A DNA stretch of 64,000 bases from NCBI RefSeq assembly GCF_036507355.1, contig NZ_AP027877.1. The stretch is one strand, 5' to 3'. This document shows, in pieces, positions 3,067 through 55,003 of this stretch. The stretch comes from Escherichia coli (GTDB lineage: Bacteria > Pseudomonadota > Gammaproteobacteria > Enterobacterales > Enterobacteriaceae). Numbering within the stretch: the stretch's first letter is position 1; each line of letters opens with the position of its first letter. Position numbers and translations under genes: made by a program. The notes under the pieces are model-generated. The model made no database searches. It had not been told where the DNA came from and was given only the letters and a program-made list of their open reading frames with translations.

Positions 3067-3516
3067 ATGGCGGAAATTGGTATTTTTGTCGGCACCATGT
3101 ACGGAAATTCGCTGTTAGTGGCGGAAGAAGCAGAAGCAATTCTGACCGCACAGGGCCACAAAGCAACGGTATTTGAAGATCCTGAATTAAGCGACTGGCT
3201 GCCCTATCAGGATAAGTATGTTCTGGTGGTTACGTCCACGACCGGGCAGGGCGACCTTCCTGATAGCATTGTGCCGCTCTTTCAGGGAATCAAAGATAGT
3301 CTGGGCTTCCAGCCGAATCTGCGTTATGGCGTGATTGCGCTCGGCGACAGCAGTTATGTAAATTTCTGCAATGGCGGCAAACAGTTCGATGCCTTGTTGC
3401 AGGAACAGAGCGCTCAGCGGGTTGGCGAAATGCTGTTGATTGACGCCAGTGAGAACCCGGAACCGGAAACGGAATCAAATCCGTGGGTCGAACAGTGGGG
3501 CACGCTGTTGTCCTGA
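3067..3516 (+). CDS. yqcA: Flavodoxin YqcA
   Basis: 149-aa ORF, flavodoxin-like ([10 protein letters not shown] motif). Confidence 0.85.
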
Positions 3517-3570
3517 TATGTTCAGCGAGCGGTAAATGTCGTTTTAGCGGTGCTGAATCGAATCTTTTTA

Positions 3571-3624
3571 GGCAAATGCCAGTAAAAACTGCTTCATAGC
3601 GCGGATTTTTACTGGCGTTTGCCT
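3571..3624 (+). terminator. Long inverted repeat (ggcaaatgccagtaaaaa ... tttttactggcgtttgcc) downstream of yqcA
   Basis: Arms are reverse complements with one mismatch. Confidence 0.45.
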
Positions 3625-3950
3625 GGAGTCAAGCGATCCATTTCATACTCTTCTTTATTTCTTCGTTTTAACCCTTCCTTTCTTGTTCTTGTTTTCATTT
3701 CCGTGAAGTGGATTCCACCGTCCAGGGCTAATGCCAAAATCGGGCCTCATTGAACGCATTAATGTTGTGTTGTTGCACGGTGAGCCGCTATGGCGCGCTT
3801 TTTATACTGCTATTGCCAGATATAAACACGCGCCGTATTCGGCGAACGACCTATAAAAACGGCAAAAAACACCCTACGTCACCTCTGATTTCCTGGCGAT
3901 GTCGCAGTCCAGAGTGAGCGTGGCTAACGCGAATTTTCAGGAGTGCAACA

Positions 3951-5303
3951 ATGAGTTCTTTAAGTCAGGCTGCGAGCCGTGTGGAAAAACGCACGAATGC
4001 TCGTTACTGGATAGTGGTGATGTTGTTTATCGTCACATCCTTCAACTACGGCGACCGCGCTACGCTTTCTATTGCCGGTTCGGAAATGGCCAAAGATATC
4101 GGCCTTGATCCCGTGGGAATGGGCTATGTGTTCTCTGCCTTCTCATGGGCTTATGTTATCGGGCAGATCCCTGGTGGTTGGTTGCTGGATCGTTTTGGTT
4201 CAAAACGCGTCTACTTCTGGTCGATCTTTATCTGGTCGATGTTTACCTTGCTGCAAGGCTTCGTCGATATCTTTAGTGGATTCGGCATTATCGTTGCCCT
4301 GTTTACTCTGCGCTTCCTGGTCGGGCTTGCTGAAGCGCCATCTTTCCCCGGCAACAGTCGCATTGTTGCGGCCTGGTTTCCGGCGCAGGAAAGGGGAACG
4401 GCGGTGTCGATTTTTAACTCCGCTCAATACTTCGCAACGGTGATCTTCGCGCCGATTATGGGCTGGCTGACGCATGAAGTGGGCTGGTCACACGTCTTCT
4501 TCTTTATGGGCGGTCTGGGCATTGTCATCAGCTTTATCTGGTTGAAAGTCATCCACGAGCCAAATCAATATCCGGGGGTAAATCAGAAAGAGCTGGAGTA
4601 CATCGCCGCGGGTGGCGCGCTGATCAATATGGATCAGTAAAACACCAAAGTTAAAGTGCCGTTCAGCGTGAAGTGGGGGCAGATCAAACAACTGCTCGGG
4701 TCACGGATGATGATCGGCGTTTATATTGGTCAGTACTGTATCAACGCCCTGACTTACTTTTTCATTACCTGGTTTCCGGTTTATCTGGTGCAGGTGCGTG
4801 GGATGTCGATTCTGAAAGCGGGCTTTGTGGCTTCCGTTCCGGCGGTTTGCGGTTTTATCGGCGGTGTGCTGGGTGGGATTATTTCCGACTGGCTGATGCG
4901 CCGCACGGGATCGCTGAACATTGCGCGTAAAACACCGATCGTAATGGGCATGTTGCTGTCGATGGTGATGGTGTTCTGCAACTACGTCAACGTTGAGTGG
5001 ATGATCATCGGCTTTATGGCGCTGGCCTTCTTCGGTAAGGGCATTGGGGCGCTGGGTTGGGCAGTAATGGCAGATACCGCACCAAAAGAGATCAGCGGTC
5101 TTTCCGGTGGCCTGTTCAACATGTTCGGTAACATTTCTGGCATCGTCACGCCAATCGCAATTGGTTATATCGTTGGCACGACTGGCTCCTTTAATGGGGC
5201 GCTGATTTATGTTGGTGTTCATGCCTTAATCGCGGTACTGAGCTACCTGGTGCTGGTGGGCGATATCAAGCGTATCGAGCTGAAACCTGTCGCGGGGCAA
5301 TAA
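3951..5303 (+). pseudogene. gudP: Glucarate/galactarate MFS transporter GudP, interrupted by one in-frame TAA at 4638-4640
   Basis: Track ORFs 3951-4640 and 4656-5303 are in the same frame and together give a full 12-TM MFS protein; only one stop codon separates them. Confidence 0.75.
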
Positions 5304-5304
5304 G

Positions 5305-6645
5305 ATGACGACACAATCCAGTCCTGTTATTACTGATATGAAAGTCATTCCGGTCGCCGGGCATGACAGCATGTTGCTCAATATTGGTGGTGCGCATAAC
5401 GCATACTTCACCCGCAATATCGTGGTACTCACCGATAACGCCGGGCATACCGGCATTGGTGAAGCACCGGGCGGAGAGGTGATTTATCAAACACTGGTCG
5501 AAGCTATTCCGATGGTGCTGGGCCAGGAAGTTGCGCGCCTGAATAAAGTGGTTCAGCAGGTGCATAAAGGTAATCAGGCCGCCGATTTTGATACCTTCGG
5601 CAAAGGTGCCTGGACTTTTGAATTGCGCGTTAATGCCGTAGCGGCGCTGGAAGCCGCCTTGCTTGACCTGTTAGGTAAGGCGCTGAATGTTCCGGTCTGC
5701 GAACTGTTAGGGCCAGGCAAGCAACGCGAGGCTATTACCGTCCTCGGTTATCTGTTTTATATCGGTGATCGGACCAAAACCGATCTTCCTTATCTGGAAA
5801 ATACGCCGGGCAACCATGAGTGGTATCAGTTGCGGCATCAGAAAGCGATGAACAGCGAAGCCGTTGTGCGTCTGGCGGAAGCCTCACAGGATCGCTACGG
5901 CTTTAAAGATTTTAAACTTAAGGGCGGCGTGTTACCTGGCGAGCAAGAAATCGACACTGTTCGTGCATTGAAGAAACGCTTCCCGGATGCGCGGATTACC
6001 GTTGATCCCAACGGTGCATGGCTGCTTGATGAAGCCATTTCTCTGTGCAAAGGGCTGAATGATGTTCTCACCTATGCCGAAGATCCATGTGGCGCAGAAC
6101 AGGGCTTCTCCGGACGTGAAGTGATGGCGGAGTTTCGGCGGGCGACCGGCTTGCCCGTTGCGACTAACATGATCGCCACCAACTGGCGCGAAATGGGTTA
6201 TGCGGTGATGCTCAATGCGGTAGATATTCCACTTGCCGATCCGCACTTCTGGACGCTTTCCGGTGCAGTCCGCGTGGCGCAGCTTTGCGACGACTGGGGG
6301 CTGACCTGGGGCTGCCATTCTAATAACCATTTCGATATCTCTCTGGCGATGTTTACCCATGTGGGCGCGGCGGCACCGGGTAATCCTACCGCTATCGATA
6401 CCCACTGGATTTGGCAGGAGGGCGATTGTCGCCTGACCCAAAATTCGCTGGAGATTAAAAACGGAAAAATTGCCGTTCCTGATGCGCCCGGTCTGGGCGT
6501 GGAACTGGACTGGGAACAGGTACAAAAGGCACATGAGGCCTATAAACGTCTGCCTGGCGGTGCGCGTAACGACGCAGGCCCGATGCAGTACCTGATCCCC
6601 GGCTGGACCTTTGACCGTAAACGTCCCGTTTTCGGCCGTCATTGA
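5305..6645 (+). CDS. gudX: Glucarate dehydratase-related protein GudX
   Basis: 446-aa enolase-superfamily ORF, paralogous to the next gene. Confidence 0.9.
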
Positions 6646-6665
6646 TTCTGAAAAAGGACATAAAT

Positions 6666-8006
6666 ATGAGCTCTCAATTTACGACGCCTGTTGTTACTGA
6701 AATGCAGGTCATCCCGGTGGCGGGCCATGACAGTATGCTGATGAATCTGAGTGGTGCACACGCACCGTTCTTCACGCGTAATATTGTGATTATCAAAGAT
6801 AATTCTGGTCACACTGGCGTAGGGGAAATTCCCGGCGGCGAGAAAATCCGTAAAACGCTGGAAGATGCGATTCCGCTGGTAGTGGGTAAAACGCTGGGTG
6901 AATACAAAAACGTTCTGACGCTGGTGCGTAATACTTTTGCCGATCGTGATGCTGGTGGGCGCGGTTTGCAGACATTTGATTTGCGTACCACTATTCATGT
7001 AGTTACCGGGATAGAAGCGGCAATGCTGGATCTGCTGGGGCAGCATCTGGGGGTTAACGTGGCATCCCTGCTGGGCGATGGTCAACAGCGTAGCGAAGTC
7101 GAAATGCTCGGTTATCTGTTCTTCGTCGGTAATCGCAAAGCCACACCTCTGCCGTATCAAAGCCAGCCGGATGACTCATGCGACTGGTATCGCCTGCGTC
7201 ATGAAGAAGCGATGACGCCGGATGCGGTGGTGCGCCTGGCGGAAGCGGCGTATGAAAAATATGGCTTCAACGATTTCAAACTGAAAGGCGGTGTACTGGC
7301 CGGGGAAGAAGAGGCCGAGTCTATTGTGGCACTGGCGCAACGCTTCCCGCAGGCGCGTATTACGCTCGATCCTAACGGTGCCTGGTCGCTGAACGAAGCG
7401 ATTAAAATTGGTAAATACCTGAAAGGTTCGCTGGCTTATGCAGAAGATCCGTGTGGTGCGGAGCAAGGTTTCTCCGGGCGTGAAGTGATGGCAGAGTTCC
7501 GTCGCGCGACTGGCCTGCCGACTGCAACCAATATGATCGCCACCGACTGGCGGCAGATGGGCCATACGCTCTCGTTACAATCCGTTGATATCCCGCTGGC
7601 GGATCCGCATTTCTGGACGATGCAAGGTTCGGTACGTGTGGCGCAAATGTGCCATGAATTTGGCCTGACCTGGGGTTCGCACTCTAACAACCACTTCGAT
7701 ATTTCCCTGGCGATGTTTACCCATGTTGCCGCCGCTGCACCGGGTAAAATTACTGCTATTGATACGCACTGGATTTGGCAGGAAGGCAATCAGCGCCTGA
7801 CCAAAGAACCGTTTGAGATCAAAGGCGGGCTGGTACAGGTGCCAGAAAAACCGGGGCTGGGTGTAGAAATCGATATGGATCAAGTGATGAAAGCCCATGA
7901 ACTGTATCAGAAACACGGGCTTGGCGCGCGTGACGATGCGATGGGAATGCAGTATCTGATTCCTGGCTGGACGTTCGATAACAAGCGCCCGTGCATGGTG
8001 CGTTAA
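6666..8006 (+). CDS. gudD: Glucarate dehydratase GudD
   Basis: Start placed at [10 protein letters not shown] (ATG 6666) after an AGGA-type RBS; the track start at 6642 overlaps the gudX stop. Confidence 0.9.
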
Positions 8007-8018
8007 GACAGAAAACCA

Positions 8019-8046
8019 AAACCGGCTCTGTCAGGAGCCGGTTTGA
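8019..8046 (+). terminator. Rho-independent terminator after gudD
   Basis: Hairpin aaccggctc...gagccggtt followed by a T-run. Confidence 0.6.
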
Positions 8047-8068
8047 GACTGATGCCAAACACAAAATT

Positions 8069-8166
8069 GCCTGATGCGCTACGCTTATCAGGCCTAAATG
8101 CTTTTTAATTTATTGAATTTAATTGGTTTTGTAGGCCGGATAAGGCGTTAACGCCGCATCCGGCAT
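8069..8166. repeat. REP/BIME-type palindromic elements between gudD and barA
   Basis: gcctgatgcgctacgcttatcaggcc and gtaggccggataaggcgttaacgccgcatccggc match the REP consensus. Confidence 0.7.
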
Positions 8167-8238
8167 AAACACAGGCACTTTGTCACCAATCTGAAACCAG
8201 CGTCATAAAAAGCCGATTGCTACTCGACAAGACATCCA

Positions 8239-10995
8239 TTACCCGAGAATTTTGCTGGCTTCGCGCGCGACATTATCCATCTCGTCCAACAGTTCCAGCA
8301 GCTCCGGCTCCAAATCTTCTTCTTTAGTACCGCTACGTAACTGTTGTTCGATCAGTTGGCAGAGATTCTTCATACGCGGCACACCGCTATAGCCGCAACT
8401 GCCATGCAGTTTATGAATCAAATCAACCAGGCCTTCCGGGTTTTCTCCAACCAGCTGTTCCTCAACTTTGTTGCGAACTTCAGGCAGGAAATCGAGTAAC
8501 ATTTGCAGCATATCGCGCGCCAGATCGGTTTTTCCTGCTGCCTGGCGTAGTGCCAGTTGCCAGTCGAGGGTCGCATTCGGGTTCACCACAATTTCGTTGA
8601 CTTCGGGCGTCACGACGCGAGAGGAAATACCGCTGCCAGGCTTGTAGCGCAACAGCAAATTATGCAATCGCTCTTCTTCAATCGGTTTCGCCAGATAATC
8701 ACTCATCCCTGCGCCAAGCAGCTTCTCTTTTTGCCCGGCCATTGCATGCGCCGTTACCGCGATAACCGGCGTTTGTTGCTGATGGGGGAGTTGGTGGATG
8801 AGTTCGCAGGCCCGAATGCCATCCATGTCCGGCATTTGAATATCCATTAAGATCAAATCGAACGGCATCTGTTTCGCCCGTTCAACCGCCTGATGCCCGC
8901 TATCGCAAAGCTCCACATGTTGCACCATATCTTCCAGCAATGCGCCGATAAGTTTCAGGTTAGCGGGGTTGTCATCAACCGCCATGACTGTCATTGCCAG
9001 CTTACTTTCATCGGTTACAGGCAAAAGCGTGTTTTGTTTGTGATGACAAAATTCCGTCAGGGCAGGCAACAGGCGCGTAGGTGTTAATGGTTTCAGCAGA
9101 CACGCGCCGATACCATCTTGCTTGAGTTTTTCAGCATTGACTTGTGCATGGCAAGGAAGTGCCAGCATCAGGAAATCGGTCATCGATACCGCTTTCGCTA
9201 ATCGCTCATGTTGCATTGTTAGCGGCTCGCGGAAGGTCACCGCGATGCCTAACAACATCATGTCGTAATGCGCGGGAGGCAGCGCGGAGAACGTTGGGCT
9301 ATAAACCACTTCCAGCGGCGTTTCACTTAAAATATCCAGCGTGCATTGCGCTGCTGCGGAGTTTGGTTCGACATAGGCCAGGCGTTTACCGGCGAGGCAC
9401 TGGGTGGATGGCCCTTCAATAATAATGTTCGGGTTCAGATCGAGATTAATGTGGAACCAGAAAGTTGAACCGCGATTCGGCTGGCTATGGAACGAAATAT
9501 CGCCGCCCATTTCATTAACCAGTTTTTGTGTAATCACCAGCCCCAGCCCGGTGCCACCATGACGGCGGGAAATACTGGCATCAGCCTGTCGGAAGGCCTG
9601 GAATAAGCGCGATTGATCGCGTTCAGGAATACCAATGCCGGTATCCCGAATCTGCACTTCAATCTGCACTTTGGTATTACTCAGCGCACGTTTTTCTACC
9701 AGAATATCAATGTTGCCATTCTCGGTGAATTTAATTGCATTCCCCACCAGGTTAGTGATGATTTGCTGTAATCGCAGTGGGTCGCCGATCACGTTATCAG
9801 GCACGTCGCTTTTAATATTGAGCGTCAGTTCCAACCCTTTATCGTGAGAAGAATGTGCCAGCAGAGTAACGACTTCATCCAGCGTGCTGCGTAGTGGGAA
9901 TGGAATACTTTCCAGAATCAGCTTACCTGCTTCCAGTTTCGAGAAGTCGAGAACATCATTAATAATTGCCAGCAAATTATTTGCCGAACGTTCAATCGTA
10001 TTCAGGTGATCGCGCTGCGTTGGTGTTAATTCTGTTTTCAGCGTCAGGCGGGTAAAGCCAATAACACCATTCAGTGGTGTACGCAGCTCGTGTGACATAT
10101 TTGCCAGAAACTCGGATTTAATACGCGCCGCTTCCTGGGCGCGCTTTTTCGCCAGATCCAACTCAACGTTCTGAATTTCCATCTGCTCCAGCGTTTCACG
10201 CAGATCGGACGTCGCCTGGTCGATATTGTGCTGCATCTCTTCGTGATAAGCAGCCAGCGACATTGCCATCGAGTTGATACCGTTTTTCAGCATATCCAGC
10301 TCGCCGAGCATAAATCCTTCCACCCGGCTGTCGAGTTGCCCGCGACGGATGCGGTCGACGGTATTCACCATGTTGCGAATCGGACCGGTTACATCGCGCA
10401 TTAAGCGCCAGCCAAAAATAAGCGCAATACCGATACAAAACAGCATCATCACGCTGGAAATAAAGATCTCTTTATATTGCTGCAAGCGAACCGATTTAAG
10501 ATCCAGCTCAAGCGCAATATATCCCAACATATTTTGACTATTTTTGGCATCGCTACTGGGCGATTCGTCGGGGGAGTAACTCTCAGAAATAATCGGCGTG
10601 CGGAGGATCATAATATCGCCGTCACGAGTGACAGTGAGCTGGCGAGGAAACGGCACGTTGCTGCCGAGCTGCATTGATGAGGGATCAAGATGAAAATTGG
10701 AGGTGACAAAGAGTCGGTTATTTTCATCATAAACCGAAATCGCGCGAACAATATCGGAATGGCGACGATGCAGTACGCTTATTAACTGACCGATAGATTC
10801 GCGATTTTGCAGGCTCATGCCATATTCAGTAGAAACTGCAAGCGGCTCAATAATGCTGGCACCGGCATCTTCCAGTTGACGCTGCAAGTCGTTATAGCGA
10901 TGCACGACGAAAAAGATACTCAGCAATAAACCAATAAGGACGGTCGGTGCCAGGATCAGAATCATCATGCGTGCGCGCAGGCTGTAGTTGGTCAT
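8239..10995 (-). CDS. barA: Hybrid sensor histidine kinase BarA
   Basis: 918-aa ORF with HAMP, HisKA/HATPase, receiver and HPt regions. Confidence 0.95.
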
Positions 10996-11051: not shown

Positions 11052-12353
11052 ATGGCGCAATTCTACTCTGCAAAACGACGCACGACGACGCGTCAGATCA
11101 TAACCGTTTCAGTCAACGACCTCGACTCTTTTGGTCAGGGCGTGGCGCGACATAACGGCAAAACGCTATTTATCCCCGGATTATTGCCGCAGGAAAACGC
11201 GGAAGTTACTGTTACTGAAGATAAAAAACAGTATGCCCGCGCTAAAGTCGTACGCCGGTTAAGCGATAGCCCGGAACGCGAAACGCCACGCTGTCCTCAT
11301 TTTGGCGTATGCGGCGGCTGTCAGCAACAACACGCCAGCGTGGATTTACAGCAGCGAAGCAAAAGTGCGGCACTCGCCCGATTAATGAAACACGAAGTCT
11401 CTGAAGTGATCGCCGATGTTCCCTGGGGCTATCGCCGTCGCGCGCGTTTAAGTCTGAATTACTTACCGAAAACACAGCAACTTCAGATGGGGTTTCGCAA
11501 AGCGGGCTCCAGTGACATTGTCGACGTTAAACAATGCCCCATTTTAGTGCCCCAACTTGAAGCATTGCTGCCCAAAGTCAGGGCATGCCTGGGCAGCTTA
11601 CAAGCTATGCGCCATCTTGGTCATGTTGAACTGGTACAGGCAACCAGCGGCACGCTGATGATTTTGCGCCATACCGCACCGCTAAGTTCGGCAGATCGCG
11701 AAAAACTGGAACACTTTTCGCATTCTGAAGGCCTGGATCTGTATCTTGCCCCCGATAGTGAGATACTCGAAACCGTCTCTGGTGAGATGCCCTGGTATGA
11801 CTCAAACGGGTTGCGCTTAACTTTTAGCCCGCGCGATTTTATTCAGGTCAATGCGGGTGTGAACCAAAAAATGGTAGCGCGTGCGTTGGAATGGCTGGAT
11901 GTGCAACCTGAAGATCGCGTACTGGATCTGTTCTGTGGTATGGGCAACTTTACACTGCCATTGGCGACACAAGCAGCCAGTGTCGTGGGTGTAGAAGGTG
12001 TTCCGGCGCTGGTGGAAAAAGGCCAGCAGAATGCGCGTCTTAATGGCTTACAGAATGTGACGTTTTATCATGAAAATCTTGAAGAAGATGTCACAAAGCA
12101 GCCGTGGGCGAAAAACGGCTTCGATAAAGTGTTGCTGGACCCCGCGCGAGCAGGTGCCGCAGGTGTTATGCAGCAAATTATAAAACTGGAACCTATTCGT
12201 ATAGTTTATGTATCCTGTAACCCTGCAACGCTGGCTCGGGATAGCGAAGCGTTATTAAAAGCAGGATATACCATTGCGCGACTGGCGATGCTGGATATGT
12301 TCCCACACACGGGACATCTGGAATCGATGGTACTTTTCTCGCGCGTTAAATAG
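11052..12353 (+). CDS. rlmD: 23S rRNA (uracil1939-C5)-methyltransferase RlmD
   Basis: 433-aa ORF with an Fe-S Cys cluster and SAM-MTase fold motifs. Confidence 0.9.
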
Positions 12354-12400
12354 TTGCGATTTGCCGATTTCGGCAGGTCTGGTCCCTAAAGGAGAGGACG

Positions 12401-14635
12401 ATGGTTGCGGTAAGAAGTGCACATATCAATAAGGCTGGTGAATTTGATCCGGAAAAATGGATCGCAAGTCTGGGTATTACCAGCCAGAAGTCGTGTGAGT
12501 GCTTAGCCGAAACCTGGGCGTATTGTCTGCAACAGACGCAGGGGCATCCGGATGCCAGTCTGTTATTGTGGCGTGGTGTTGAGATGGTGGAGATCCTCTC
12601 GACATTAAGTATGGACATTGACACGCTGCGGGCGGCGCTGTTGTTCCCTCTGGCTGATGCCAACGTGGTCAGCGAAGATGTGCTGCGTGAGAGCGTCGGT
12701 AAGTCGGTCGTTAACCTTATTCACGGCGTGCGTGATATGGCGGCGATCCGCCAGCTGAAAGCGACGCACACTGATTCTGTTTCCTCCGAACAGGTCGATA
12801 ACGTTCGCCGGATGTTATTGGCGATGGTCGATGATTTTCGCTGCGTGGTCATCAAACTGGCGGAGCGTATTGCTCATCTGCGTGAAGTAAAAGATGCGCC
12901 GGAAGATGAACGCGTACTGGCGGCAAAAGAGTGCACTAATATCTACGCGCCGCTGGCGAACCGTCTTGGGATTGGGCAACTGAAATGGGAGCTGGAAGAT
13001 TACTGCTTCCGTTATCTCCACCCGACCGAATATAAACGCATCGCAAAACTGTTGCATGAACGCCGTCTCGACCGCGAACACTATATCGAAGAGTTTGTCG
13101 GCCATCTGCGCGCTGAGATGAAAGCTGAAGGCGTTAAAGCTGAAGTGTATGGTCGTCCGAAACACATCTACAGCATCTGGCGCAAAATGCAGAAAAAGAA
13201 TCTCGCCTTCGATGAGCTGTTTGATGTGCGTGCGGTACGTATTGTCGCCGAGCGTTTACAGGATTGTTATGCCGCACTGGGGATAGTGCACACTCACTAT
13301 CGCCACCTGCCGGATGAGTTTGACGATTATGTCGCTAACCCGAAACCAAACGGTTATCAGTCTATTCATACCGTGGTTCTGGGGCCGGGTGGAAAAACCG
13401 TTGAGATCCAAATCCGCACCAAACAGATGCATGAAGATGCAGAGTTGGGTGTTGCTGCGCACTGGAAATATAAAGAGGGCGCGGCTGCTGGCGGCGCACG
13501 TTCGGGACATGAAGACCGGATTGCCTGGCTGCGTAAACTGATTGCGTGGCAGGAAGAGATGGCTGATTCCGGCGAAATGCTCGACGAAGTACGTAGTCAG
13601 GTGTTTGACGACCGGGTGTATGTCTTTACGCCGAAAGGTGATGTCGTTGATTTACCTGCGGGATCAACGCCGCTGGACTTCGCTTACCACATCCACAGTG
13701 ATGTCGGACACCGCTGTATCGGGGCAAAAATTGGCGGGCGCATTGTGCCGTTCACCTACCAGCTGCAAATGGGCGACCAGATTGAAATTATCACCCAGAA
13801 ACAGCCGAACCCCAGCCGTGACTGGTTAAACCCAAACCTCGGTTACGTCACAACCAGCCGTGGGCGTTCGAAAATTCACGCCTGGTTCCGTAAACAGGAC
13901 CGTGACAAAAACATTCTGGCTGGGCGGCAAATCCTTGACGACGAGCTGGAACATCTGGGGATCAGCCTGAAAGAAGCAGAAAAACATCTGCTGCCGCGTT
14001 ACAACTTCAATGATGTCGACGAGTTGCTGGCGGCGATTGGTGGAGGGGATATCCGTCTCAATCAGATGGTGAACTTCCTGCAATCGCAATTTAATAAGCC
14101 GAGTGCCGAAGAGCAGGACGCCGCCGCGCTGAAGCAACTTCAGCAAAAAAGCTACACGCCGCAAAACCGCAGTAAAGATAACGGTCGTGTGGTGGTTGAA
14201 GGTGTCGGTAACCTGATGCACCACATCGCGCGCTGCTGCCAGCCGATTCCTGGAGATGAGATTGTCGGCTTCATTACCCAAGGACGCGGTATTTCAGTAC
14301 ACCGCGCCGATTGCGAACAACTGGCGGAACTGCGCTCCCATGCGCCAGAACGCATTGTTGACGCGGTATGGGGCGAGAGCTACTCCGCCGGATATTCGCT
14401 GGTGGTCCGCGTGGTGGCTAATGATCGTAGTGGGTTGTTACGTGATATCACGACCATTCTCGCCAATGAGAAAGTGAACGTGCTTGGCGTTGCCAGCCGT
14501 AGCGACACCAAACAGCAACTGGCGACCATCGACATGACCATTGAGATTTACAACCTGCAGGTGCTGGGTCGCGTGCTGGGTAAACTCAACCAGGTGCCGG
14601 ATGTTATCGACGCGCGTCGGTTGCACGGCAGTTAG
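12401..14635 (+). CDS. relA: GTP pyrophosphokinase RelA
   Basis: 744-aa ORF. Confidence 0.95.
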   Translation: MVAVRSAHINKAGEFDPEKWIASLGITSQKSCECLAETWAYCLQQTQGHPDASLLLWRGVEMVEILSTLSMDIDTLRAALLFPLADANVVSEDVLRESVGKSVVNLIHGVRDMAAIRQLKATHTDSVSSEQVDNVRRMLLAMVDDFRCVVIKLAERIAHLREVKDAPEDERVLAAKECTNIYAPLANRLGIGQLKWELEDYCFRYLHPTEYKRIAKLLHERRLDREHYIEEFVGHLRAEMKAEGVKAEVYGRPKHIYSIWRKMQKKNLAFDELFDVRAVRIVAERLQDCYAALGIVHTHYRHLPDEFDDYVANPKPNGYQSIHTVVLGPGGKTVEIQIRTKQMHEDAELGVAAHWKYKEGAAAGGARSGHEDRIAWLRKLIAWQEEMADSGEMLDEVRSQVFDDRVYVFTPKGDVVDLPAGSTPLDFAYHIHSDVGHRCIGAKIGGRIVPFTYQLQMGDQIEIITQKQPNPSRDWLNPNLGYVTTSRGRSKIHAWFRKQDRDKNILAGRQILDDELEHLGISLKEAEKHLLPRYNFNDVDELLAAIGGGDIRLNQMVNFLQSQFNKPSAEEQDAAALKQLQQKSYTPQNRSKDNGRVVVEGVGNLMHHIARCCQPIPGDEIVGFITQGRGISVHRADCEQLAELRSHAPERIVDAVWGESYSAGYSLVVRVVANDRSGLLRDITTILANEKVNVLGVASRSDTKQQLATIDMTIEIYNLQVLGRVLGKLNQVPDVIDARRLHGS

Positions 14636-19863: not shown

Positions 19864-20766
19864 TTACCATCTTCCTGACGCGCCGCCACCGCCGGATGAA
19901 CCGCCGCCACCGCTGAAATTGTCATTGTCGAAAGAGGATGAAGAGGAAGAAGACGATGACGAATGCCAGGAGGCCGAGTTGCTTCTTTCGTAGCGTGACG
20001 GTCGGTTTGCACTACGCATTGAATCACGCACCTTTCTGCCGAAAGGTGTGAAAGCGATAGCTACGACCAGGAATGGAGTGGCGAAACATAATAATGTGGC
20101 AAGAATTCCCCAGCTCCCGCTATATCCAGCGATGGGAAGTACAAAGGCCAGTATTATGGCAGCAAAGCAAATCACTCCCAGCGTTTTGATATATCCTCTG
20201 GCAGAAATAAACGTCAGTACTATCGCCCAGACTAACAGAGCCCACCAACCGCTAAAGGGTAAAGGATGATCGGGCGATGTATTATTGACTAAATCATTTC
20301 CTGATAGTCGGGTTTCAATATCACCAATACCTTGTTGCAAGCCGACAGCAAGGTCGCCCTTTTTAAACGCTGGAATAATACTGTTGCGTATAATTTGCCC
20401 GGACTGCGCATCCGTCAGAATACCCTCAAGTCCGTAGCCAATTTCAATATGTACTGTATGATCTTGCTAGGCAACTACCAGTAAAATACCGTCATCAAGA
20501 TTCTTATGACCGGGCTGCCAACGCTCGAATACCCGCGTTGCGTACTGCTCGATGGTTTCGTCGCCTGTTGTATCAACCACTAACACGACCAACTGTGCGT
20601 GTTTTTTTTGTGTCAGGGCTTTAATCTGGTTGGTCAGGGTGTTTACTTCGCTGTTTGTTAATGTGCCGGTTAAGTCATTCACATACTTGGGTGATTCAGG
20701 TACTGGAATTTGTGTGGCAAACACAGATGAACAGAAGAAAGCCGTAAGGAAGATAAAATTTCGCAT
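19864..20766 (-). pseudogene. ygcG: TPM-domain protein YgcG homolog, interrupted by one in-frame TAG at 20467-20469
   Basis: Track ORFs 20467-20796 and 19864-20340 share a frame; translation through the stop continues the TPM domain (…LLVVA*QDHTVHIEIGYGLEG…); signal peptide start MRNFIF, Gly/Ser-rich C-tail. Confidence 0.7.
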
Positions 20767-22226: not shown

Positions 22227-22565
22227 TTAAACATTTATAAGCGTTATAAATGGGTGGAACCTGTAAAGACTTCTACTCATTTATATTCTTTGTCGCCTCT
22301 GAAAACTCCTCCATTTTACCCATCCAGGGCTAATCATTAGCATTCTCTACAAATTCTGTGGTGTTAATTTTTTGTTGGAGTGAAAATTATTGCGGTAAAG
22401 TTTGGTAGATTTTAGTTTGTATAGAATTATTTTAAATATTTGCCTTTTTAATCAATGGGTTAAGTGCTCTTTAACATAATGGATGTGTTGTTTGTGTGAT
22501 ACTGTAAAGTTGGTAGATTGTGACTGGCTTAAAAAATCATTAATTAATAATAGGTTATGTTTAGA

Positions 22566-22777
22566 GAGTTCCCCGCGCCAGCGGGGATAAACCGGAGAGA
22601 GTCCAGTATCAATCCCGCGATCCGCAGAGTTCCCCGCGCCAGCGGGGATAAACCGCCGTTGCGGATCTTGAGTAGTGCCACGTCACCGAGTTCCCCGCGC
22701 CAGCGGGGATAAACCGGGTACAAAAGAGGCCCCATTCTGGCAGGGCTCGAGTTCCCCGCGCCAGCGGGGATAAACCA
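22566..22777 (+). CRISPR. Type I-E CRISPR array: 4 repeats of 29 bp (GAGTTCCCCGCGCCAGCGGGGATAAACCG) and 3 spacers of 32 bp, AT-rich leader upstream
   Basis: Repeats at 22566, 22627, 22688 and 22749 (61-bp period); last repeat ends in A; degenerate repeat remnant near 22867-22888. Confidence 0.95.
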
Positions 22778-23244
22778 CCATATAACCCGTTATCTCTTTC
22801 TCAAGTTTTTATATTAGCAGTACTTGTAATAAGCAACATATCCACGTAACACCTCATGTTCAAAATAGTTCCCCATGCCAGATAAGTTCACAATTATCGA
22901 TACAAAAAATTAAATTTAATCAAAGTGTTATTTGTATAATTCTTAAGCCGTTAAGAAATTTTAATCTATTATTTTTTTAATATTAATTAATGCCTGTTAA
23001 TTTTTTCTTTAGTATAACAGTGTATTTTTTAAGCTTGTTATTCATTGATTAAGTAATAAATCTGGAAATTTGTCTTTGTTTTGAGGCTAATGAGTGGTTT
23101 TACATAACCGCCTCTATACGCTGTTGATGAATAGTTCTTATGAATAAAGATATCCAGTTCATACTTTAAGTGAAAATTGATAAAGTGCGATTCGTATTGT
23201 CTTTTATTCTAAAGACATCGAGTGTAGTTAATATTCCTTGTAAA

Positions 23245-23368
23245 AACAGGGATAAACCGAACTAGTTAAAGTTTTTATTATGTTCCCTGCATCAGCGGGG
23301 ATAAACCGGACTTGTTATCATTTTTTAAGTTGTCGAACTTATGTTCCCCGCGCCAGCGGGGATAACCA
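23245..23368 (+). CRISPR. Degenerate, vestigial CRISPR array (2-3 mutated repeats, one 32-bp spacer)
   Basis: Partial repeat ending ggataaaccg at 23259, mutated repeats at 23280-23308 and 23341-23368 flanking a 32-bp spacer. Confidence 0.7.
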
Positions 23369-23414
23369 TTCAGGTATGTTCAGGCCGGGCAGTTTCCCGC
23401 CCGGTTTTCCTCAC

Positions 23415-38372: not shown

Positions 38373-38761
38373 CCACCACGTGGGGGTAAAACCCCGCGTA
38401 TTGAATTGTGATGGTTTGGTCTCCTGCACCCTTTTTTAAATTTATATTTTTTATGTGAATATATTGTCTCTATTTATTATTATGAATTTCAAATGAAAAT
38501 CATAAATTTATTCACAATATAAATGTTTTATTGGCTGATATATATCACAGATAATTTTTAAAATATGCGTAAATATCCTTTAAGTTTACTGAAGGATAAA
38601 AATATTGTGACTTTCTTTGATTTCTGGGGAAAAACCCGACGCGACGAGAAAGAAGGGGGTGACGACTATCACCTTCTTTGCTGGCATTCGCTGGATGTGG
38701 CCGCGATGGGCTATTTAATGGTTAAAAGAAATTGCTTCGGGCTGGCGGTAATGACTCCAAC

Positions 38762-39265
38762 TTATTGATAGTGTTTTATGTTCAGATAATGCCCGATGAC
38801 TTTGTCATGCAGCTCCACCGATTTTGAGAACGACAGCGACTTCCGTCCCAGCCGTGCCAGGTGCTGCCTCAGATTCAGGTTATGCCGCTCAATTCGCTGC
38901 GTATATCGCTTGCTGATTACGTGCAGCTTTCCCTTCAGGCGGGATTCATACAGCGGCCAGCCATCCGTCATCCATATCACCACGTCAAAGGGTGACAGCA
39001 GGCTCATAAGACGCCCCAGCGTCGCCATCGTGCGTTCACCGAATACGTGCGCAACAACCGTCTTCCGGAGCCTGTCATACGCGTAAAACAGCCAGCGCTG
39101 GCGCGATTTAGCCCCGACATAGCCCCACTGTTCGTCCATTTCCGCGCAGACGATGACGTCACTGCCCGGCTGTATGCGCGAGGTTACCGACTGCGGCCTG
39201 AGTTTTTTAAGTGACGTAAAATCGTGTTGAGGCCAACGCCCATAATGCGGGCTGTTGCCCGGCAT
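38762..39265 (-). CDS. insB: IS1 InsB (expressed as InsAB' by a -1 frameshift)
   Basis: 167-aa ORF overlapping insA in the -1 frame. Confidence 0.9.
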
Positions 39266-39459
39266 CCAACGCCATTCATGGCCATATCAATGATTTTCTG
39301 GTGCGTACCGGGTTGAGAAGCGGTGTAAGTGAACTGCAGTTGCCATGTTTTACGGCAGTGAGAGCAGAGATAGCGCTGATGTCCGGCGGTGCTTTTGCCG
39401 TTACGCACCACCCCGTCAGTAGCTGAACAGGAGGGACAGCTGATAGAAACAGAAGCCAC
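39184..39459 (-). CDS. insA: IS1 InsA
   Basis: 91-aa [26 protein letters not shown]…. Confidence 0.9.
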
Positions 39460-41451
39460 TGGAGCACCTCAAAAACACCATCATACACTAAATCAGTAAG
39501 TTGGCAGCATCACCCGGGCTGGCTGATTATTTTCGTCAATTAGGGATTTCTGACAAGGAACAGGCGGCTCAATTTTTCGCCTGGTTGTTGTGCTGGCACG
39601 ATATTGGAAAATTTGCCCGCTCATTTCAGCAACTTTACCTGCACCCACAACTCAAGGTTCCGGAAGGCGCAAGAAAGAATTACGAAAAGATCTCTCATTC
39701 AACGCTGGGCTACTGGTTGTGGCATCATTATTTAAGTGAATGCGAAGAATTGCTTCCTGCCTCTTCACTCTCTACTCGCAAACTTAAACGTGTAATAGCG
39801 ATGTGGATGCCCATGACTACCGGGCATCATGGTCGGCCCCCTGACCGTATTGATGAACTGGATAATTTTCTGCCTGAAGACAAAGTTGCCGCGCGAGATT
39901 TTCTCCTTGAAATCAAGGCACTGTGTCCGCTCATAGAGATTCCCACATTCTGGGATAATGACGAGGGAGTTGAACTTTTAAAACAACTTTCCTGGTATAT
40001 CTCTGCAACAGTCGTACTTGCAGACTGGACGGGTTCGTCAACGCGATTTTTTCCACGCGTCGCACACCCAATGGATATTAAAGATTACTGGCAGAAAACT
40101 TTAGTTCAGGCTCAAAACGCCTTAACCGTCTTTCCTCCAAAAGCAGAAACCGCACCTTTCACCGGAATTAATACGCTGTTTCCTTTTATTGAGCACCCGA
40201 CACCATTACAGCAAAAGGTGCTGGATCTGGATATCAGCCAGCCAGGGCCACAGTTATTTATTCTGGAAGACGTGACTGGCGCAGGTAAAACAGAAGCGGC
40301 GCTTATCCTGGCGCACAGGTTGATGGCTGCGAGGAAAGCACAGGGTTTGTTTTTTGGCCTGCCAACAATGGCAACGGCCAATGCCATGTACGATCGGCTG
40401 GTCAAAACCTGGCTTGCTTTCTATTCGCCAGAGTCCCGCCCCAGCCTGGTGCTGGCACACAGTGCCCGCACATTAATGGACCGCTTTAATGAATCACTCT
40501 GGTCCGGTGATTTAGTCGGGTCAGAAGAACCGGATGAACAAGCGTTCAGTCAAGGATGTGCAGCCTGGTTTGCCGACAGTAACAAGAAGGCTTTACTGGC
40601 TGAAATTGGCGTCGGCACGCTGGATCAGGCGATGATGGCGGTGATGCCGTTCAAACATAATAATCTGCGGCTTCTGGGGCTGAGTAACAAAATCCTGCTG
40701 GCTGATGAGATCCACGCCTGTGACGCTTACATGTCATGCATTCTTGAAGGGCTGATCGAGCGGCAGGCGCGTGGTGGAAACAGCGTCATTTTGCTTTCTG
40801 CTACGTTATCCCAACAGCAGCGCGACAAACTCGTCGCCGCCTTTGCGCGTGGCACAGAGGGCCAGCAAGAAGCTCCGTTCCTTGAAAAGGATGATTACCC
40901 CTGGCTGACGCATGTCACGAAATCCGATGTGAACTCACACCGGGTAGCGACGCGCAAAGACGTTGAGCGTAGCGTCAGCGTGGGTTGGCTTCATAGTGAA
41001 CAAGAGAGTATTGCGCGTATCGAATCGGCGGTAAGTCAGGGAAAATGCATCGCCTGGATCCGCAATTCTGTCGATGACGCTATTAAGGTTCATCGTCAGC
41101 TGCTTGCCCGCGGCGTCATTCCCGCTTCCAGCCTTTCACTCTTTCATAGCCGCTTTGCTTTTAGCGATCGCCAGCGAATCGAAACGGAAACGCTGGCACG
41201 CTTTGGTAAAAATTGTAATTTAAAAAGATCATCGCAAGTCATTGTTTGTACACAAGTAATTGAGCAAAGTGTGGATATTGACCTGGACGAAATGATCTCC
41301 GACCTTGCCCCCATTGATTTGCTGATCCAGCGAGCGGGGCGATTACAGCGACATATCCGCGATATTAATGGTCAGTTAAAGCGTGACGGAAAAGACGAGC
41401 GTTCCCCTCCTGAATTGCTGATTCTGGCCCCCGTCTGGGACGACGCTCCTG

Positions 41452-41781
41452 GTGACGAATGGTTCGGCAGTGCCATGCGTACGCGCCTTTACAGAGGCCG
41501 CGCTTAAAGTCTCACCAACCGGAAAACAAAACAGCTTTGCCAGCCGTGCCTACGCCTCCTGGGCGCTGGCGGAAAAAGGCACTGTTCAACCGCGTTCTCT
41601 GGCGGCGGCTTTCTATGAACCCATTAATGGTACCCGTCAGTTAGATGTGGCGGTGCAGCGTATTACAACGCTTCGCGAAAACATGAATACGGTCTACGAA
41701 CAGAAGACTGAATGCGCAAGTTTTGACGTGATGAACAAACAGGGAAGCATGAAGGACGTACTGGACTTTATCTGCGCGTAA
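41452..41781 (+). pseudogene. 3' remnant of a cas gene, most plausibly the end of cas7/casC fused out of frame to cas3
   Basis: 109-aa frame ending 10 bp before the cas5 ATG, the position casC occupies in an intact I-E operon; the alternative reading is a frameshifted cas3 tail. Confidence 0.4.
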
Positions 41782-41791
41782 GGGGCGGCTT

Positions 41792-42973
<1,182 letters not shown>

Positions 42974-43069: not shown

Positions 43070-43281
43070 GTGTTCCCGGCGCCAGCGGGGATAAACCGAC
43101 GAGGGGCTCGTTATTCGGGAAATTACAAAAGTGTTCCCCGCGCCAGCGGGGATAAACCGGCCCAGGGATTTGTTCAATCCAGCGTGCCGCTGTGTTCCCC
43201 GCATCAGCGGGGATAAACCGGGCGCACTGGATGCGATGATGGATATCACTTAGAATTCCCCGCCCCTGCGGTAGAACTCCC
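43070..43281 (+). CRISPR. Type I-E CRISPR array next to cas2: 3 repeats GTGTTCCC(C/G)GCGCCAGCGGGGATAAACCG plus a degenerate terminal repeat, 3 spacers of 32 bp
   Basis: Repeats at 43070, 43131 and 43192, degenerate repeat at 43253; 61-bp period; AT-rich leader at 42974-43069. Confidence 0.95.
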
Positions 43282-44339: not shown

Positions 44340-44590
44340 AGTGAGTCCTTAAATACCATGCAAATTTTTTTACCGCCATAGTATGAAACTGCCGCTGCGC
44401 TAAAACAATTTCAAATCTTCCTAAACGCCCGAAATCCGGTGCCTTAAGCACTTTTTGATATTAGCTTTGCCAAATCGTTATTCCGTTAAGGAACTACTCA
44501 TTCTAATTGGTAATTTCATTCGTTCTCTTACGCTCCCTATAGTCGAAACATCTGATGGCAAGAAAATAGCGGTATTGCAAAGGAACGGTT

Positions 44591-45499
44591 ATGGATCAAA
44601 TACGACTTACTCACCTGCGGCAACTGGAGGCGGAAAGCATCCACATTATTCGCGAGGTGGCGGCAGAATTCTCAAATCCGGTGATGCTCTACTCTATCGG
44701 TAAAGATTCCAGCGTCATGCTGCATCTGGCGCGCAAGGCGTTTTATCCAGGTACGCTGCCTTTCCCGTTGCTGCATGTCGATACCGGCTGGAAATTCCGC
44801 GAGATGTATGAGTTCCGCGATCGTACGGCGAAAGCCTACGGCTGCGAGCTGCTGGTGCATAAAAACCCGGAAGGCGTGGCGATGGGGATTAATCCATTCG
44901 TGCACGGCAGCGCGAAACATACCGATATTATGAAGACCGAAGGCCTGAAGCAGGCGCTGAATAAATACGGTTTTGATGCCGCCTTCGGTGGTGCGCGCCG
45001 CGACGAAGAGAAATCCCGTGCTAAAGAGCGTATCTACTCTTTCCGTGATCGCTTCCATCGCTGGGACCCGAAAAATCAGCGCCCGGAGCTGTGGCACAAC
45101 TATAACGGGCAGATTAACAAAGGCGAAAGCATCCGCGTTTTCCCGCTCTCTAACTGGACCGAGCAGGATATCTGGCAATACATCTGGCTGGAAAATATCG
45201 ACATTGTTCCGTTGTATCTCGCTGCGGAACGTCCGGTTCTGGAACGCGACGGTATGTTGATGATGATTGATGACAACCGTATCGACCTGCAACCGGGCGA
45301 AGTGATTAAAAAACGGATGGTGCGTTTCCGTACGCTGGGCTGCTGGCCGCTGACCGGTGCGGTGGAGTCAAATGCACAAACGCTGCCGGAGATCATCGAA
45401 GAGATGCTGGTTTCCACCACCAGTGAACGTCAGGGGCGCGTGATTGACCGCGACCAGGCTGGTTCTATGGAGCTGAAAAAACGTCAGGGGTATTTTTAA
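44591..45499 (+). CDS. cysD: Sulfate adenylyltransferase subunit 2
   Basis: 302-aa ORF. Confidence 0.95.
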
Positions 45500-45500
45500 G

Positions 45501-46928
45501 ATGAACACCGCACTTGCACAACAAATCGCCAATGAAGGCGGCGTCGAAGCCTGGATGATTGCGCAACAACATAAAAGCCTGCTGCGTTTTCTGACCTGTG
45601 GTAGCGTCGATGACGGCAAAAGTACCCTGATTGGTCGTCTGCTGCACGATACCCGCCAAATCTATGAAGATCAGCTCTCATCGCTGCATAACGACAGCAA
45701 ACGACACGGTACCCAGGGCGAGAAACTGGATTTGGCGTTGCTGGTGGATGGCCTGCAAGCTGAACGCGAACAGGGTATTACTATCGACGTGGCTTACCGT
45801 TATTTCTCTACCGAGAAGCGTAAATTTATTATCGCCGACACCCCCGGGCACGAGCAGTATACCCGCAATATGGCGACCGGCGCCTCAACGTGTGAGCTGG
45901 CGATCTTATTGATCGACGCCCGTAAAGGCGTGCTCGATCAAACCCGTCGTCACAGTTTTATCTCCACGCTGCTGGGGATCAAACATCTGGTCGTAGCGAT
46001 CAACAAAATGGATCTGGTGGATTACAGTGAAGAGACATTCACCCGCATTCGTGAAGACTACCTGACTTTCGCCGAACAGTTACCTGGCAATCTGGATATT
46101 CGCTTTGTGCCGCTCTCTGCGCTGGAAGGCGACAACGTGGCTTCGCAAAGTGAAAGTATGCCGTGGTACAGCGGTCCGACACTGCTCGAAGTGCTGGAAA
46201 CCGTGGAGATCCAGCGAGTGGTGGATGTCCAGCCAATGCGCTTCCCGGTGCAGTACGTTAACCGCCCAAATCTCGATTTTCGTGGCTACGCCGGAACGCT
46301 GGCATCCGGTCGCGTGGAAGTCGGGCAACGTGTAAAAGTGCTGCCCTCTGGTGTGGAATCAAACGTCGCGCGGATCGTGACTTTTGATGGCGATCGCGAA
46401 GAAGCCTTTGCCGGAGAAGCGATCACCTTGGTGCTGACGGATGAGATCGATATCAGCCGTGGTGATCTGCTGCTGGCGGCAGACGAAGCGTTACCAGCTG
46501 TGCAGAGCGCGTCGGTGGATGTGGTATGGATGGCGGAACAGCCGCTTTCCCCGGGCCAGAGTTATGACATCAAAATTGCCGGTAAGAAGACGCGTGCTCG
46601 TGTTGATGGCATTCGTTATCAGGTTGATATTAATAACCTTACCCAACGCGAAGTTGAAAACCTGCCGCTGAACGGCATCGGCTTGGTGGATCTCACTTTT
46701 GACGAGCCACTGGTGTTAGATCGTTATCAGCAAAACCCGGTTACCGGTGGGCTGATTTTTATCGATCGCCTGAGCAATGTGACCGTAGGTGCCGGTATGG
46801 TGCATGAGCCAGTTAGCCAGGCAACTGCTGCGCCATCTGAATTTAGTGCATTCGAACTGGAATTGAATGCCCTGGTTCGCCGCCACTTTCCACACTGGGG
46901 CGCGCGCGATTTGCTGGGGGATAAATAA
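45501..46928 (+). CDS. cysN: Sulfate adenylyltransferase subunit 1 (GTPase)
   Basis: 475-aa ORF with GTP-binding motifs. Confidence 0.95.
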
Positions 46929-47533
46929 TGGCGCTGCATGACGAAAACGTCGTCTGGCATAGCCATCCGGTCACTGTGCAACAACGCGAGCTACACCACG
47001 GTCATCGTGGTGTAGTGCTGTGGTTTACCGGCCTCTCCGGGTCCGGTAAATCAACGGTCGCCGGGGCGCTGGAGGAGGCGTTACATAAACTCGGCGTCAG
47101 TACGTATCTGCTGGATGGCGATAATGTTCGCCACGGATTATGCAGCGATCTCGGTTTTAGCGATGCCGATCGTAAAGAGAATATCCGTCGCGTCGGTGAA
47201 GTGGCGAATTTGATGGTTGAAGCCGGACTGGTGGTGCTGACCGCATTTATCTCGCCACACCGCGCCGAACGCCAGATGGTTCGCGAACGCGTAGGAGAAG
47301 GGCGCTTTATCGAAGTGTTTGTCGATACGCCGCTGGCGATTTGCGAAGCCCGCGATCCAAAAGGCTTATATAAGAAAGCGCGTGCCGGTGAACTGCGCAA
47401 CTTTACGGGAATAGATTCCGTTTACGAAGCGCCTGAATCGGCAGAAATTCATCTCAATGGTGAACAATTAGTAACAAATTTGGTACAGCAATTATTAGAT
47501 CTGTTGAGACAGAACGATATTATCAGATCCTGA
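46928..47533 (+). CDS. cysC: Adenylyl-sulfate kinase
   Basis: 201-aa ORF with P-loop GLSGSGKST. Confidence 0.95.
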
Positions 47534-47582
47534 GACACCACCGGGTTTCCATGCCCGGTTCGTCAAAGTAACAGGATCAAAT

Positions 47583-47906
47583 ATGCGTAATAGCCATAAC
47601 ATTACACTAACAAATAACGACAGCCTTACTGAGGATGAAGAAACCACATGGTCACTGCCTGGTGCCGTGGTCGGTTTTATCTCCTGGTTATTTGCGCTGG
47701 CGATGCCGATGTTGATTTATGGCTCTAACACGCTGTTCTTCTTTATCTACACCTGGCCTTTCTTTCTTGCGCTGATGCCCGTCGCGGTAGTGGTGGGGAT
47801 TGCGCTGCATTCATTGATGGACGGAAAGCTACGCTACAGTATTGTTTTCACCCTGATGACAGTAGGCATTATGTTTGGCGCACTGTTTATGTGGCTACTG
47901 GGCTAA
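47583..47906 (+). CDS. ygbE: Inner membrane protein YgbE
   Basis: 107-aa hydrophobic ORF. Confidence 0.8.
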   Translation: MRNSHNITLTNNDSLTEDEETTWSLPGAVVGFISWLFALAMPMLIYGSNTLFFFIYTWPFFLALMPVAVVVGIALHSLMDGKLRYSIVFTLMTVGIMFGALFMWLLG

Positions 47907-48099
47907 TTTGTACTTTCCCGTCTCCTCTGTTCATAATTCAAACCGTAACTAATAATGAGATTATGTTCTGCACGCCCTGGGTATACGTAACAATGGACAA
48001 ATGTGGTACATTTGCCCGCGTTGTCGCGGTATCCCCAACAGAGGATGTAGAGTCGTCTTCGGATGCATGGGATGATGATGCCGTTTTTCAGGGGGCAGG

Positions 48100-48411
48100 A
48101 TGGGTAAACTAACGCTGCTGTTGCTGGCTATTCTGGTCTGGCTACAGTATTCGCTGTGGTTCGGTAAGAACGGTATACATGACTATACCCGCGTCAATGA
48201 TGATGTGGCGGCACAGCAAGCTACAAACGCGAAACTTAAAGCGCGAAACGATCAACTTTTTGCCGAAATTGACGATCTCAATGGCGGCCAGGAGGCGCTC
48301 GAAGAGCGTGCGCGTAATGAACTCAGCATGACCAGGCCGGGCGAAACGTTTTATCGTCTGGTGCCTGACGCGTCGAAGCGCGCACAGTCTGCGGGGCAAA
48401 ACAATCGATAA
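48100..48411 (+). CDS. ftsB: Cell division protein FtsB
   Basis: 103-aa ORF with TM segment and coiled coil. Confidence 0.9.
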
Positions 48412-48429
48412 ATCAGCCCGGGAATTAAC

Positions 48430-49140
48430 ATGGCAACCACTCATTTGGATGTTTGCGCCGTGGTTCCGGCGGCCGGATTTGGCCGTCGAATGCAAACGGA
48501 ATGTCCTAAGCAATATCTCTCAATCGGTAATCAAACCATTCTTGAACACTCGGTGCATGCGCTGCTGGCGCATCCCCGGGTGAAACGTGTCGTCATTGCC
48601 ATAAGTCCTGGCGATAGCCGTTTTGCACAACTTCCTCTGGCGAATCATCCGCAAATCACCGTTGTAGATGGCGGTGATGAGCGTGCCGATTCCGTGCTGG
48701 CAGGTTTGAAAGCCGCTGGCGACGCGCAGTGGGTATTGGTGCATGACGCCGCTCGTCCTTGTCTGCATCAGGATGACCTCGCGCGATTGTTGGCGTTGAG
48801 CGAAACCAGCCGCACGGGAGGGATCCTAGCCGCACCAGTGCGCGATACTATGAAACGTGCCGAACCGGGCAAAAATGCCATTGCTCATACCGTTGATCGC
48901 AACGGCTTATGGCACGCGCTGACGCCGCAATTTTTCCCTCGTGAGCTGTTACATGACTGTCTGACGCGCGCTCTAAATGAAGGCGCGACTATTACCGACG
49001 AAGCCTCGGCGCTGGAATATTGCGGATTCCATCCTCAGTTGGTCGAAGGCCGTGCGGATAACATTAAAGTCACGCGCCCGGAGGATTTGGCACTGGCCGA
49101 GTTTTACCTCACCCGAACCATCCATCAGGAGAATACATAA
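48430..49140 (+). CDS. ispD: 2-C-methyl-D-erythritol 4-phosphate cytidylyltransferase
   Basis: 236-aa ORF. Confidence 0.95.
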
Positions 49141-49619
49141 TGCGAATTGGACACGGTTTTGACGTACACGCCTTTGGCGGTGAAGGCCCAATTATCATTG
49201 GTGGCGTACGCATTCCTTACGAAAAAGGATTGCTGGCGCATTCTGATGGCGACGTGGCGCTCCATGCGTTGACCGATGCATTGCTTGGCGCGGCGGCGCT
49301 GGGGGATATCGGCAAGCTGTTCCCGGATACCGATCCGGCATTTAAAGGTGCCGATAGCCGCGAGCTGCTACGCGAAGCCTGGCGTCGTATTCAGGCGAAG
49401 GGTTATACCCTTGGCAACGTCGATGTCACTATCATCGCTCAGGCACCGAAGATGTTGCCGCACATTCCACAAATGCGCGTGTTTATTGCCGAAGATCTCG
49501 GCTGCCATATGGATGATGTTAACGTGAAAGCCACTACTACGGAAAAACTTGGATTTACCGGACGTGGGGAAGGGATTGCCTGTGAAGCGGTGGCGCTACT
49601 CATTAAGGCAACAAAATGA
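49140..49619 (+). CDS. ispF: 2-C-methyl-D-erythritol 2,4-cyclodiphosphate synthase
   Basis: 159-aa ORF; TAATG overlap with ispD. Confidence 0.95.

Positions 49620-50645: not shown

Positions 50646-50665
<20 letters not shown>
49616..50665 (+). CDS. truD: tRNA pseudouridine(13) synthase TruD
   Basis: 349-aa ORF. Confidence 0.9.
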
Positions 50666-52027
<1,362 letters not shown>

Positions 52028-52166
52028 AACGTGAGGAAATACCTGGATTTTTCCTGGTTATTTTGCCGCAGGTCAGCGTATCGTGAACATCTTTTCCAGT
52101 GTTCAGTATGGTGCCCTGCACGGTAATTATGTCACTGGTTATTAACCAATTTTTCCTGGGGGATAA

Positions 52167-53306: not shown

Positions 53307-53368
53307 ATCGGCGGAACCAGGCTTTTGCTTGAATGTTCCGTCAAGGGATCACGGGTAGGAGCCACCTT

Positions 53369-54361: not shown

Positions 54362-54378
54362 GTAAGCATCTGTCAGAA

Positions 54379-54412
54379 AGGCCAGTCTCAAGCGAGGCTG
54401 GCCTTTTTCTTT
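54379..54412 (+). terminator. Rho-independent terminator after rpoS
   Basis: aaggccagtctcaagcgaggctggcctttttcttttg. Confidence 0.8.
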
Positions 54413-54480
54413 TGTTTGGGAAGCTTGTGTTTTTGTCGCCTGGATAAGACACGTCAGCGTCCTACCCGGCAATTTGCATC

Positions 54481-54888: not shown

Positions 54889-55003
54889 GTAAACTCCGGG
54901 CTAATTCTCTGTCGCTATCATAGCGGTTTTTTAGTGACGAAGAAGATGTTGTTACTTTTCAATCCTTGCCGCTGTGGAAATGAAGGAGTATGTTAATAAT
55001 AAC

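Follow-up and report, generated by a model that had tools for sequence, protein, structure and literature searches.

The gudP gene of this Escherichia coli genome is very probably a null allele, created by a single C-to-T transition that turns Gln230 into a stop codon and fixed in a rare clone. We analysed it within a stretch of 64,000 nucleotides, referred to below as the window. It is an ordinary nonsense pseudogene of a well-known gene. The broken gene and its parts are the following:

3951..4640, + strand: gudP N-terminal fragment, consisting of 229 codons and the premature TAA, with the N-terminal six-helix bundle (TIGR00893 positions 1-196, E = 5.9e-81)
4638..4640, + strand: premature ochre codon Q230* (CAA to TAA), seen in the sequence, in the alignment with strain A30 and throughout the clone
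4641..5303, + strand: gudP C-terminal remnant, in frame and without further lesion, with the C-terminal six-helix bundle (TIGR00893 positions 201-399, E = 5.5e-75)

The frame opens with ATG at 3951 and closes with TAA at 5301-5303, and translation reveals one internal stop among the 451 codons, the TAA at 4638-4640, which is codon 230. The original prediction, read from the letters alone, of a single in-frame ochre codon is thereby borne out; the list of open reading frames likewise gives the two predicted pieces in one frame, 3951-4640 (229 aa) and 4656-5303 (215 aa, GTG start). The frame continues without interruption from 4641, GTG 4656 being merely the first start-type codon past the stop. 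The orthologue alignment that had been proposed as a check agrees: gudP of E. coli A30 aligns without gaps, with ten differences over 1353 nt, one of them the C-to-T change at nucleotide 688 that converts CAA (Gln) to TAA. DNA identity to gudP of A30, IAI1 and D8 (NZ_CP195962.1) is 99.2-99.4%, with equal length and no indels. CAA also occupies this position in all 13 non-lineage E. coli loci that we retrieved, and TAA in all members of the lineage. A premature stop where intact orthologues carry a sense codon is the mark of a nonsense pseudogene, and gudP is the only gene with an internal stop among the 33 window genes mapped against D8. Gene callers and GenBank enter it as two fragments or as a pseudogene; in GenBank, the 215-aa C-terminal fragment is BED21149.1, 'hypothetical protein VEE46_09170'.

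Both neighbourhood and similarity identify the gene as the orthologue of E. coli GudP (b2789, UniProt Q46916, WP_000097082.1), the galactarate/glucarate/glycerate transporter of the ACS family of MFS proteins. The gene order syd, yqcC, truC, yqcA, gudP, gudX, gudD, barA, rlmD is the same as in A30, IAI1 and D8, so that the yqcA-gudP-gudX-gudD-barA neighbourhood is preserved, and similarity extends over the full length of GudP and of its family profile. With TIGR00893 bit scores of 272 (N-terminal) and 253 (C-terminal), each half alone stays under the curated cut-off of 395. What is missing is an uninterrupted frame for all 12 helices. Compared with E. coli GudP, the window gene has the stop at codon 230, A282V on an S10R background, and H207Y.

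The stop falls between positions 196 and 201 of the TIGR00893 profile. The closest solved structure is that of the D-galactonate:H+ symporter DgoT (PDB 6E9N, 6E9O), which supplies the 6+6 helix architecture; unlike window GudP, it is an intact paralogue with another substrate. The protein with its stop repaired aligns with DgoT 6E9N over residues 14-443 (E = 8e-110), and codon 230, inside a hydrophilic stretch of about residues 204-250, is placed in the central cytoplasmic loop. Taken together, the profile positions and the DgoT alignment mean that the transporter is severed between its two six-helix halves, and that, as predicted, the stop interrupts the central loop of an MFS transporter with 12 TM helices.

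One-base differences are the commonest type of sequencing error, and an erroneous read or assembly could in principle hide a true CAA codon. This explanation is effectively refuted, its probability being negligible: the same TAA stands in six other independent assemblies, three of them NCBI or ENA records and three of them Logan assemblies, which come from different submitters and runs. The carriers include GCA_016660925.1, GCA_905398585.1, SRR31122001, ERR3330519 and SRR17480487. Since identical TAA codons recur in independent assemblies, the stop is real and fixed in the clone, an inherited lesion rather than an artefact; the reservation attached to the original prediction, that raw reads might show a sense codon at 4638-4640, is effectively answered as well.

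The clone was found by an exact-protein look-up with the window GudX, which returned nine contigs; the 215-aa fragment and RlmD gave the same small set. An exact look-up with the 229-aa N-terminal product had no match, because H207Y is private to this genome. BarA proved to be a common allele and did not isolate the relatives, while yielding ten more intact gudP loci. Clone members differ from the window by just 5 SNPs and 1 indel over 6.8 kb.

Outside the clone, 5,402 complete E. coli genomes contain the site of the 61-mer at 4609-4669; all lie in the 95-99% identity band, and not one matches it exactly. Exact-pattern scans of GTDB species representatives and of JGI metagenomes did not find the stop-containing sequence either. 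The nearest complete E. coli genomes show about 98.0% identity over window positions 1-25000 and 99.0% over 44400-64000. As far as these sequence searches reach, the clone is rare and isolated, and Q230* could be used as a stable marker SNP for it. Literature searches on gudP as a Shigella pseudogene and on the sample accessions of the clone members found nothing.

From the native start, translation would end past the N-terminal six-helix bundle. As MFS proteins form the substrate path between their N and C bundles, the 229-aa half alone is not expected to transport. Restart behind the stop should be weak. Anti-Shine-Dalgarno pairing reaches -6.9 kcal/mol at the native gudP start, compared with a mean of -3.0 for the background over the whole gene; the candidate restart codons score -0.4 (GTG 4656 and 4668), -3.2 (ATG 4707) and -3.3 kcal/mol (ATG 4710). 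As they are no better than background, no more than traces of the C-terminal half would be produced. Glucarate and galactarate would then no longer be taken up through GudP.

The same restart codons are central to a different reading, in which translation resumes at GTG 4656 or 4668 or at ATG 4707 or 4710 and separate N6 and C6 halves assemble into active GudP. The chain is broken between helices 6 and 7, in the central loop, where split MFS proteins tolerate cutting; an in-frame GTG follows 15 nt past the stop, and none of the seven genomes has damage in the C-terminal frame. There is also a laboratory parallel: LacY, likewise an MFS protein, reportedly works when expressed in two segments, N6 + C6, cut in its central loop into two six-helix halves. 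The halves of split LacY, however, are said to have each had engineered expression signals, whereas the C-terminal half of the window gudP is without a ribosome-binding site, and at none of the four candidate starts did we find a translation initiation signal of its own, given the pairing energies above. Clone diversity is too small for the intact frame to be meaningful, and two of the five clone SNPs are missense changes in gudP. We therefore hold a split but working transporter to be highly improbable. Its most specific form, in which the clone keeps a two-piece GudP through the stop at 4638, reinitiation at GTG 4656 and joining of the halves in the membrane, is slightly less probable again; if true, it would be the natural counterpart of the laboratory split LacY.

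Harder still to credit is that readthrough, or an ochre suppressor tRNA, yields enough full-length GudP. Among the stop codons of E. coli, UAA gives the most efficient termination, and natural isolates seldom carry ochre suppressors, which come at a cost. The window contains no tRNA gene (suppressor genes would sit elsewhere in the genome) and nothing in it speaks for suppression.

We return to the null allele and to the other changes that it carries. Relative to the common GudP WP_000097082.1, the window protein has S10R, H207Y, Q230* and A282V. S10R by itself is a common allele, with at least 1,000 contigs; A282V (18 contigs) and H207Y (4 contigs) are each rare on their own, and the protein look-up has no intact protein on record that combines S10R with A282V. 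Within the clone, H207Y is private to this genome, and two other members have R14C instead. The positions of A282V, H207Y and R14C are unconserved with respect to DgoT, so these substitutions are no proof of relaxed selection. Of the SNPs within the clone, gudP holds two out of five, both missense, while it makes up 20% of the region (binomial estimate p ~0.26); relaxed selection is compatible with this distribution, yet the excess is not significant. Beyond the stop, no disabling lesion is present in gudP in any of the seven genomes, a state that fits a young pseudogene and also fits continued constraint on two halves. Other truncated forms also occur in the GudP protein cluster; one of them, in E. 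coli 2726800, is 266 aa long.

The rest of the operon is undamaged:

3517..3950, + strand: yqcA-gudP intergenic region with the gudPXD promoter and regulatory sequences, intact, 434 nt, as long as its counterparts in A30 and IAI1
5305..6645, + strand: gudX (glucarate dehydratase-related protein), intact, 446 aa, no gaps or stops
6666..8006, + strand: gudD (glucarate dehydratase), intact, TIGR03247 score 898.7 bits against a cut-off of 828.7

The intergenic region differs by one window-specific SNP, at 3569. GudX has two changes unique among the four strains compared, H299Y and P381S. The GudD protein is identical to that of strain D8, all window-unique changes in gudD being synonymous. The prediction that gudX and gudD are intact downstream of the broken gene thus stands, both being full length without gaps or stops.

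Whether the enzymes are also retained as products is a separate matter. The gudX start lies one base past the gudP stop codon, so translational coupling would be lost: about 660 nt of untranslated mRNA would precede a start that is normally coupled to gudP translation, and expression of gudX and gudD may fall. A consensus promoter scan gave no internal promoter candidate on the + strand within 3500-8300. The untranslated 660-nt stretch is rich in G and not in C (C/G is mostly below 1), and strong Rho-dependent polarity is accordingly not expected. Retention of the catabolic enzymes, as originally claimed, therefore holds at the level of sequence, and their expression may still be lower.

Several observations concern the surroundings of the operon. 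Three Logan short-read assemblies of the clone end contigs at about window position 8085, in the gudD-barA intergenic region just past gudD; the shared ends suggest a repeated element there, and a 25-kb query also matched a median of 17 places per genome. In SRR31122001, truC has an extra A (equivalent to about window position 2916) that leaves the called product with 241 aa instead of 260, which could be a genuine frameshift or an error of Logan contig assembly. In GCA_012810915.1, an unrelated E. coli with intact gudP, gudX (12351-13691) is called as two pieces of 361 and 73 aa, from which it appears that gud operon lesions arise sporadically in other lineages.

Two studies of K-12 gudP deletions find a glucarate phenotype, of differing severity. 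In the Keio collection, the gudP mutant is impaired on D-glucarate and normal on D-galactarate, and the garP mutant does not grow on D-glucarate; GarP was proposed as the primary transporter, with GudP partly redundant (bioRxiv 10.64898/2026.05.20.726482). In the other study, glucarate fermentation was abolished in a gudP deletion mutant and restored by complementation (PMC11775122). The original prediction spoke of a loss of dedicated glucarate uptake. An impairment agrees with these data, and outright loss overstates them, as GarP, which may be the chief importer of glucarate and galactarate, overlaps with GudP in K-12. Because of this overlap, growth of the present strain on glucarate should be reduced, not necessarily abolished, provided that the GarP paralogue, whose gene lies outside the window, is intact in this genome. 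A natural gudP null that keeps gudD and gudX would be a small data point on the dispensability of GudP in the presence of GarP, and the allele could act as a natural knockout for testing the GarP/GudP division of labour proposed in 2026.

Glucarate and galactarate are oxidised sugars used by Enterobacteriaceae in the inflamed or antibiotic-treated gut (PMC11775122), and mutations recur in gudP, as in cdaR, garK and garL, during the evolution of E. coli in the inflamed gut of mice (bioRxiv 10.64898/2026.05.27.728231). Loss of gudP might thus have been adaptive in the niche of the clone rather than the outcome of neutral decay, a proposal that accepts the null allele and overlaps with our preferred explanation. 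The allele is fixed throughout the clone, but fixation follows from common descent alone, and the clone has unrelated private lesions in ygcG, ygcW-ygcU and cas that fit relaxed selection or drift. On balance we consider adaptive loss unlikely. The other lesions are these:

~19864-20766, - strand: ygcG-like TPM-domain gene with W100* (TGG to TAG at 20467-20469), otherwise full length, 300 aa
Junction 26455, between yqcE and ygcU: ygcW-ygcU deletion of 1,254 bp relative to D8; ygcW is lost entirely, and ygcU has lost its promoter and first 338 nt
38747-39514: IS1 in cas3, about 180 nt into the gene, with a target duplication of 9 bp
Junction 41481/41482: cas3-cas7 deletion of 3.5 kb; casA and casB are gone, along with the 3' end of cas3 and most of cas7
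Junction ~41877: cas5-cas1 deletion of 1.4 kb; cas6e is gone entirely, along with most of cas5 and the 5' end of cas1

The ygcG stop W100* is common to ERR3330519, GCA_047852605.1 and ERR11525759, and the relatives GCA_902845195.1 and GCA_054270355.1 have TGG at codon 100 and an intact gene of 300 aa. In IAI1 and D8, another cause leaves ygcG annotated as incomplete at its C-terminus. The lesions have destroyed the type I-E cas operon over window positions 38565-42683, with a 5'-truncated cas1 left over. Neither the ygcW-ygcU junction nor the cas3-cas7 junction was found in any of 5,426 complete E. coli genomes.

In the same region, the CRISPR arrays are very short. The first, with four repeats (three spacers) and a degenerate remnant, lies between ygcE and queE; the second, with three repeats (two spacers), lies beside iap. 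The arrays were found by a repeat search and missed by Tandem Repeats Finder; such short arrays would fit an inactive CRISPR-Cas system. Their positions are:

22565-22777: CRISPR repeats
23230-23369: CRISPR repeats
43070-43220: CRISPR repeats

The amount of private damage is above what is usual for 64 kb, and is suggestive of a decaying lineage, with the cas lesions counting as one functional unit. The claim in the original prediction of a lineage undergoing gene decay is upheld locally, by ygcG W100*, the ygcW-ygcU deletion, IS1 and the two cas deletions; as a genome-wide statement it reaches beyond the 64 kb. The pattern resembles the lineage-specific metabolic pseudogenes of E. coli, EIEC and Shigella, with a private nonsense mutation in a carbon-source uptake gene and IS plus deletions in nearby dispensable loci. 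Unlike decay on the scale of Shigella, the window has one IS copy in 64 kb, and its 30 other mapped genes are intact.

Identity to a single reference (IAI1 or D8) swings between 91% and 100% from one gene to its neighbour; for example, it is 100% for mazE, 95% for mazG, 95% for cysJ and 100% for queD. To judge by these values, recombination mosaicism is strong, and it misled our search for a close outgroup. Genomes chosen through the intact YgcG allele turned out to be just 98.4-99.1% identical over 12 kb. Their near-identity around ygcG is local mosaicism, so they place no bound on the age of the gudP stop.

Finally, the variable region between rpoS and mutS (55035-57055) carries genes for a hydroxyarylic acid decarboxylase, one ORF of 475 aa and, as a putative member, one of 197 aa; a subunit C annotation lies within the match. 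K-12 presumably carries a different gene set (ygb) between rpoS and mutS.
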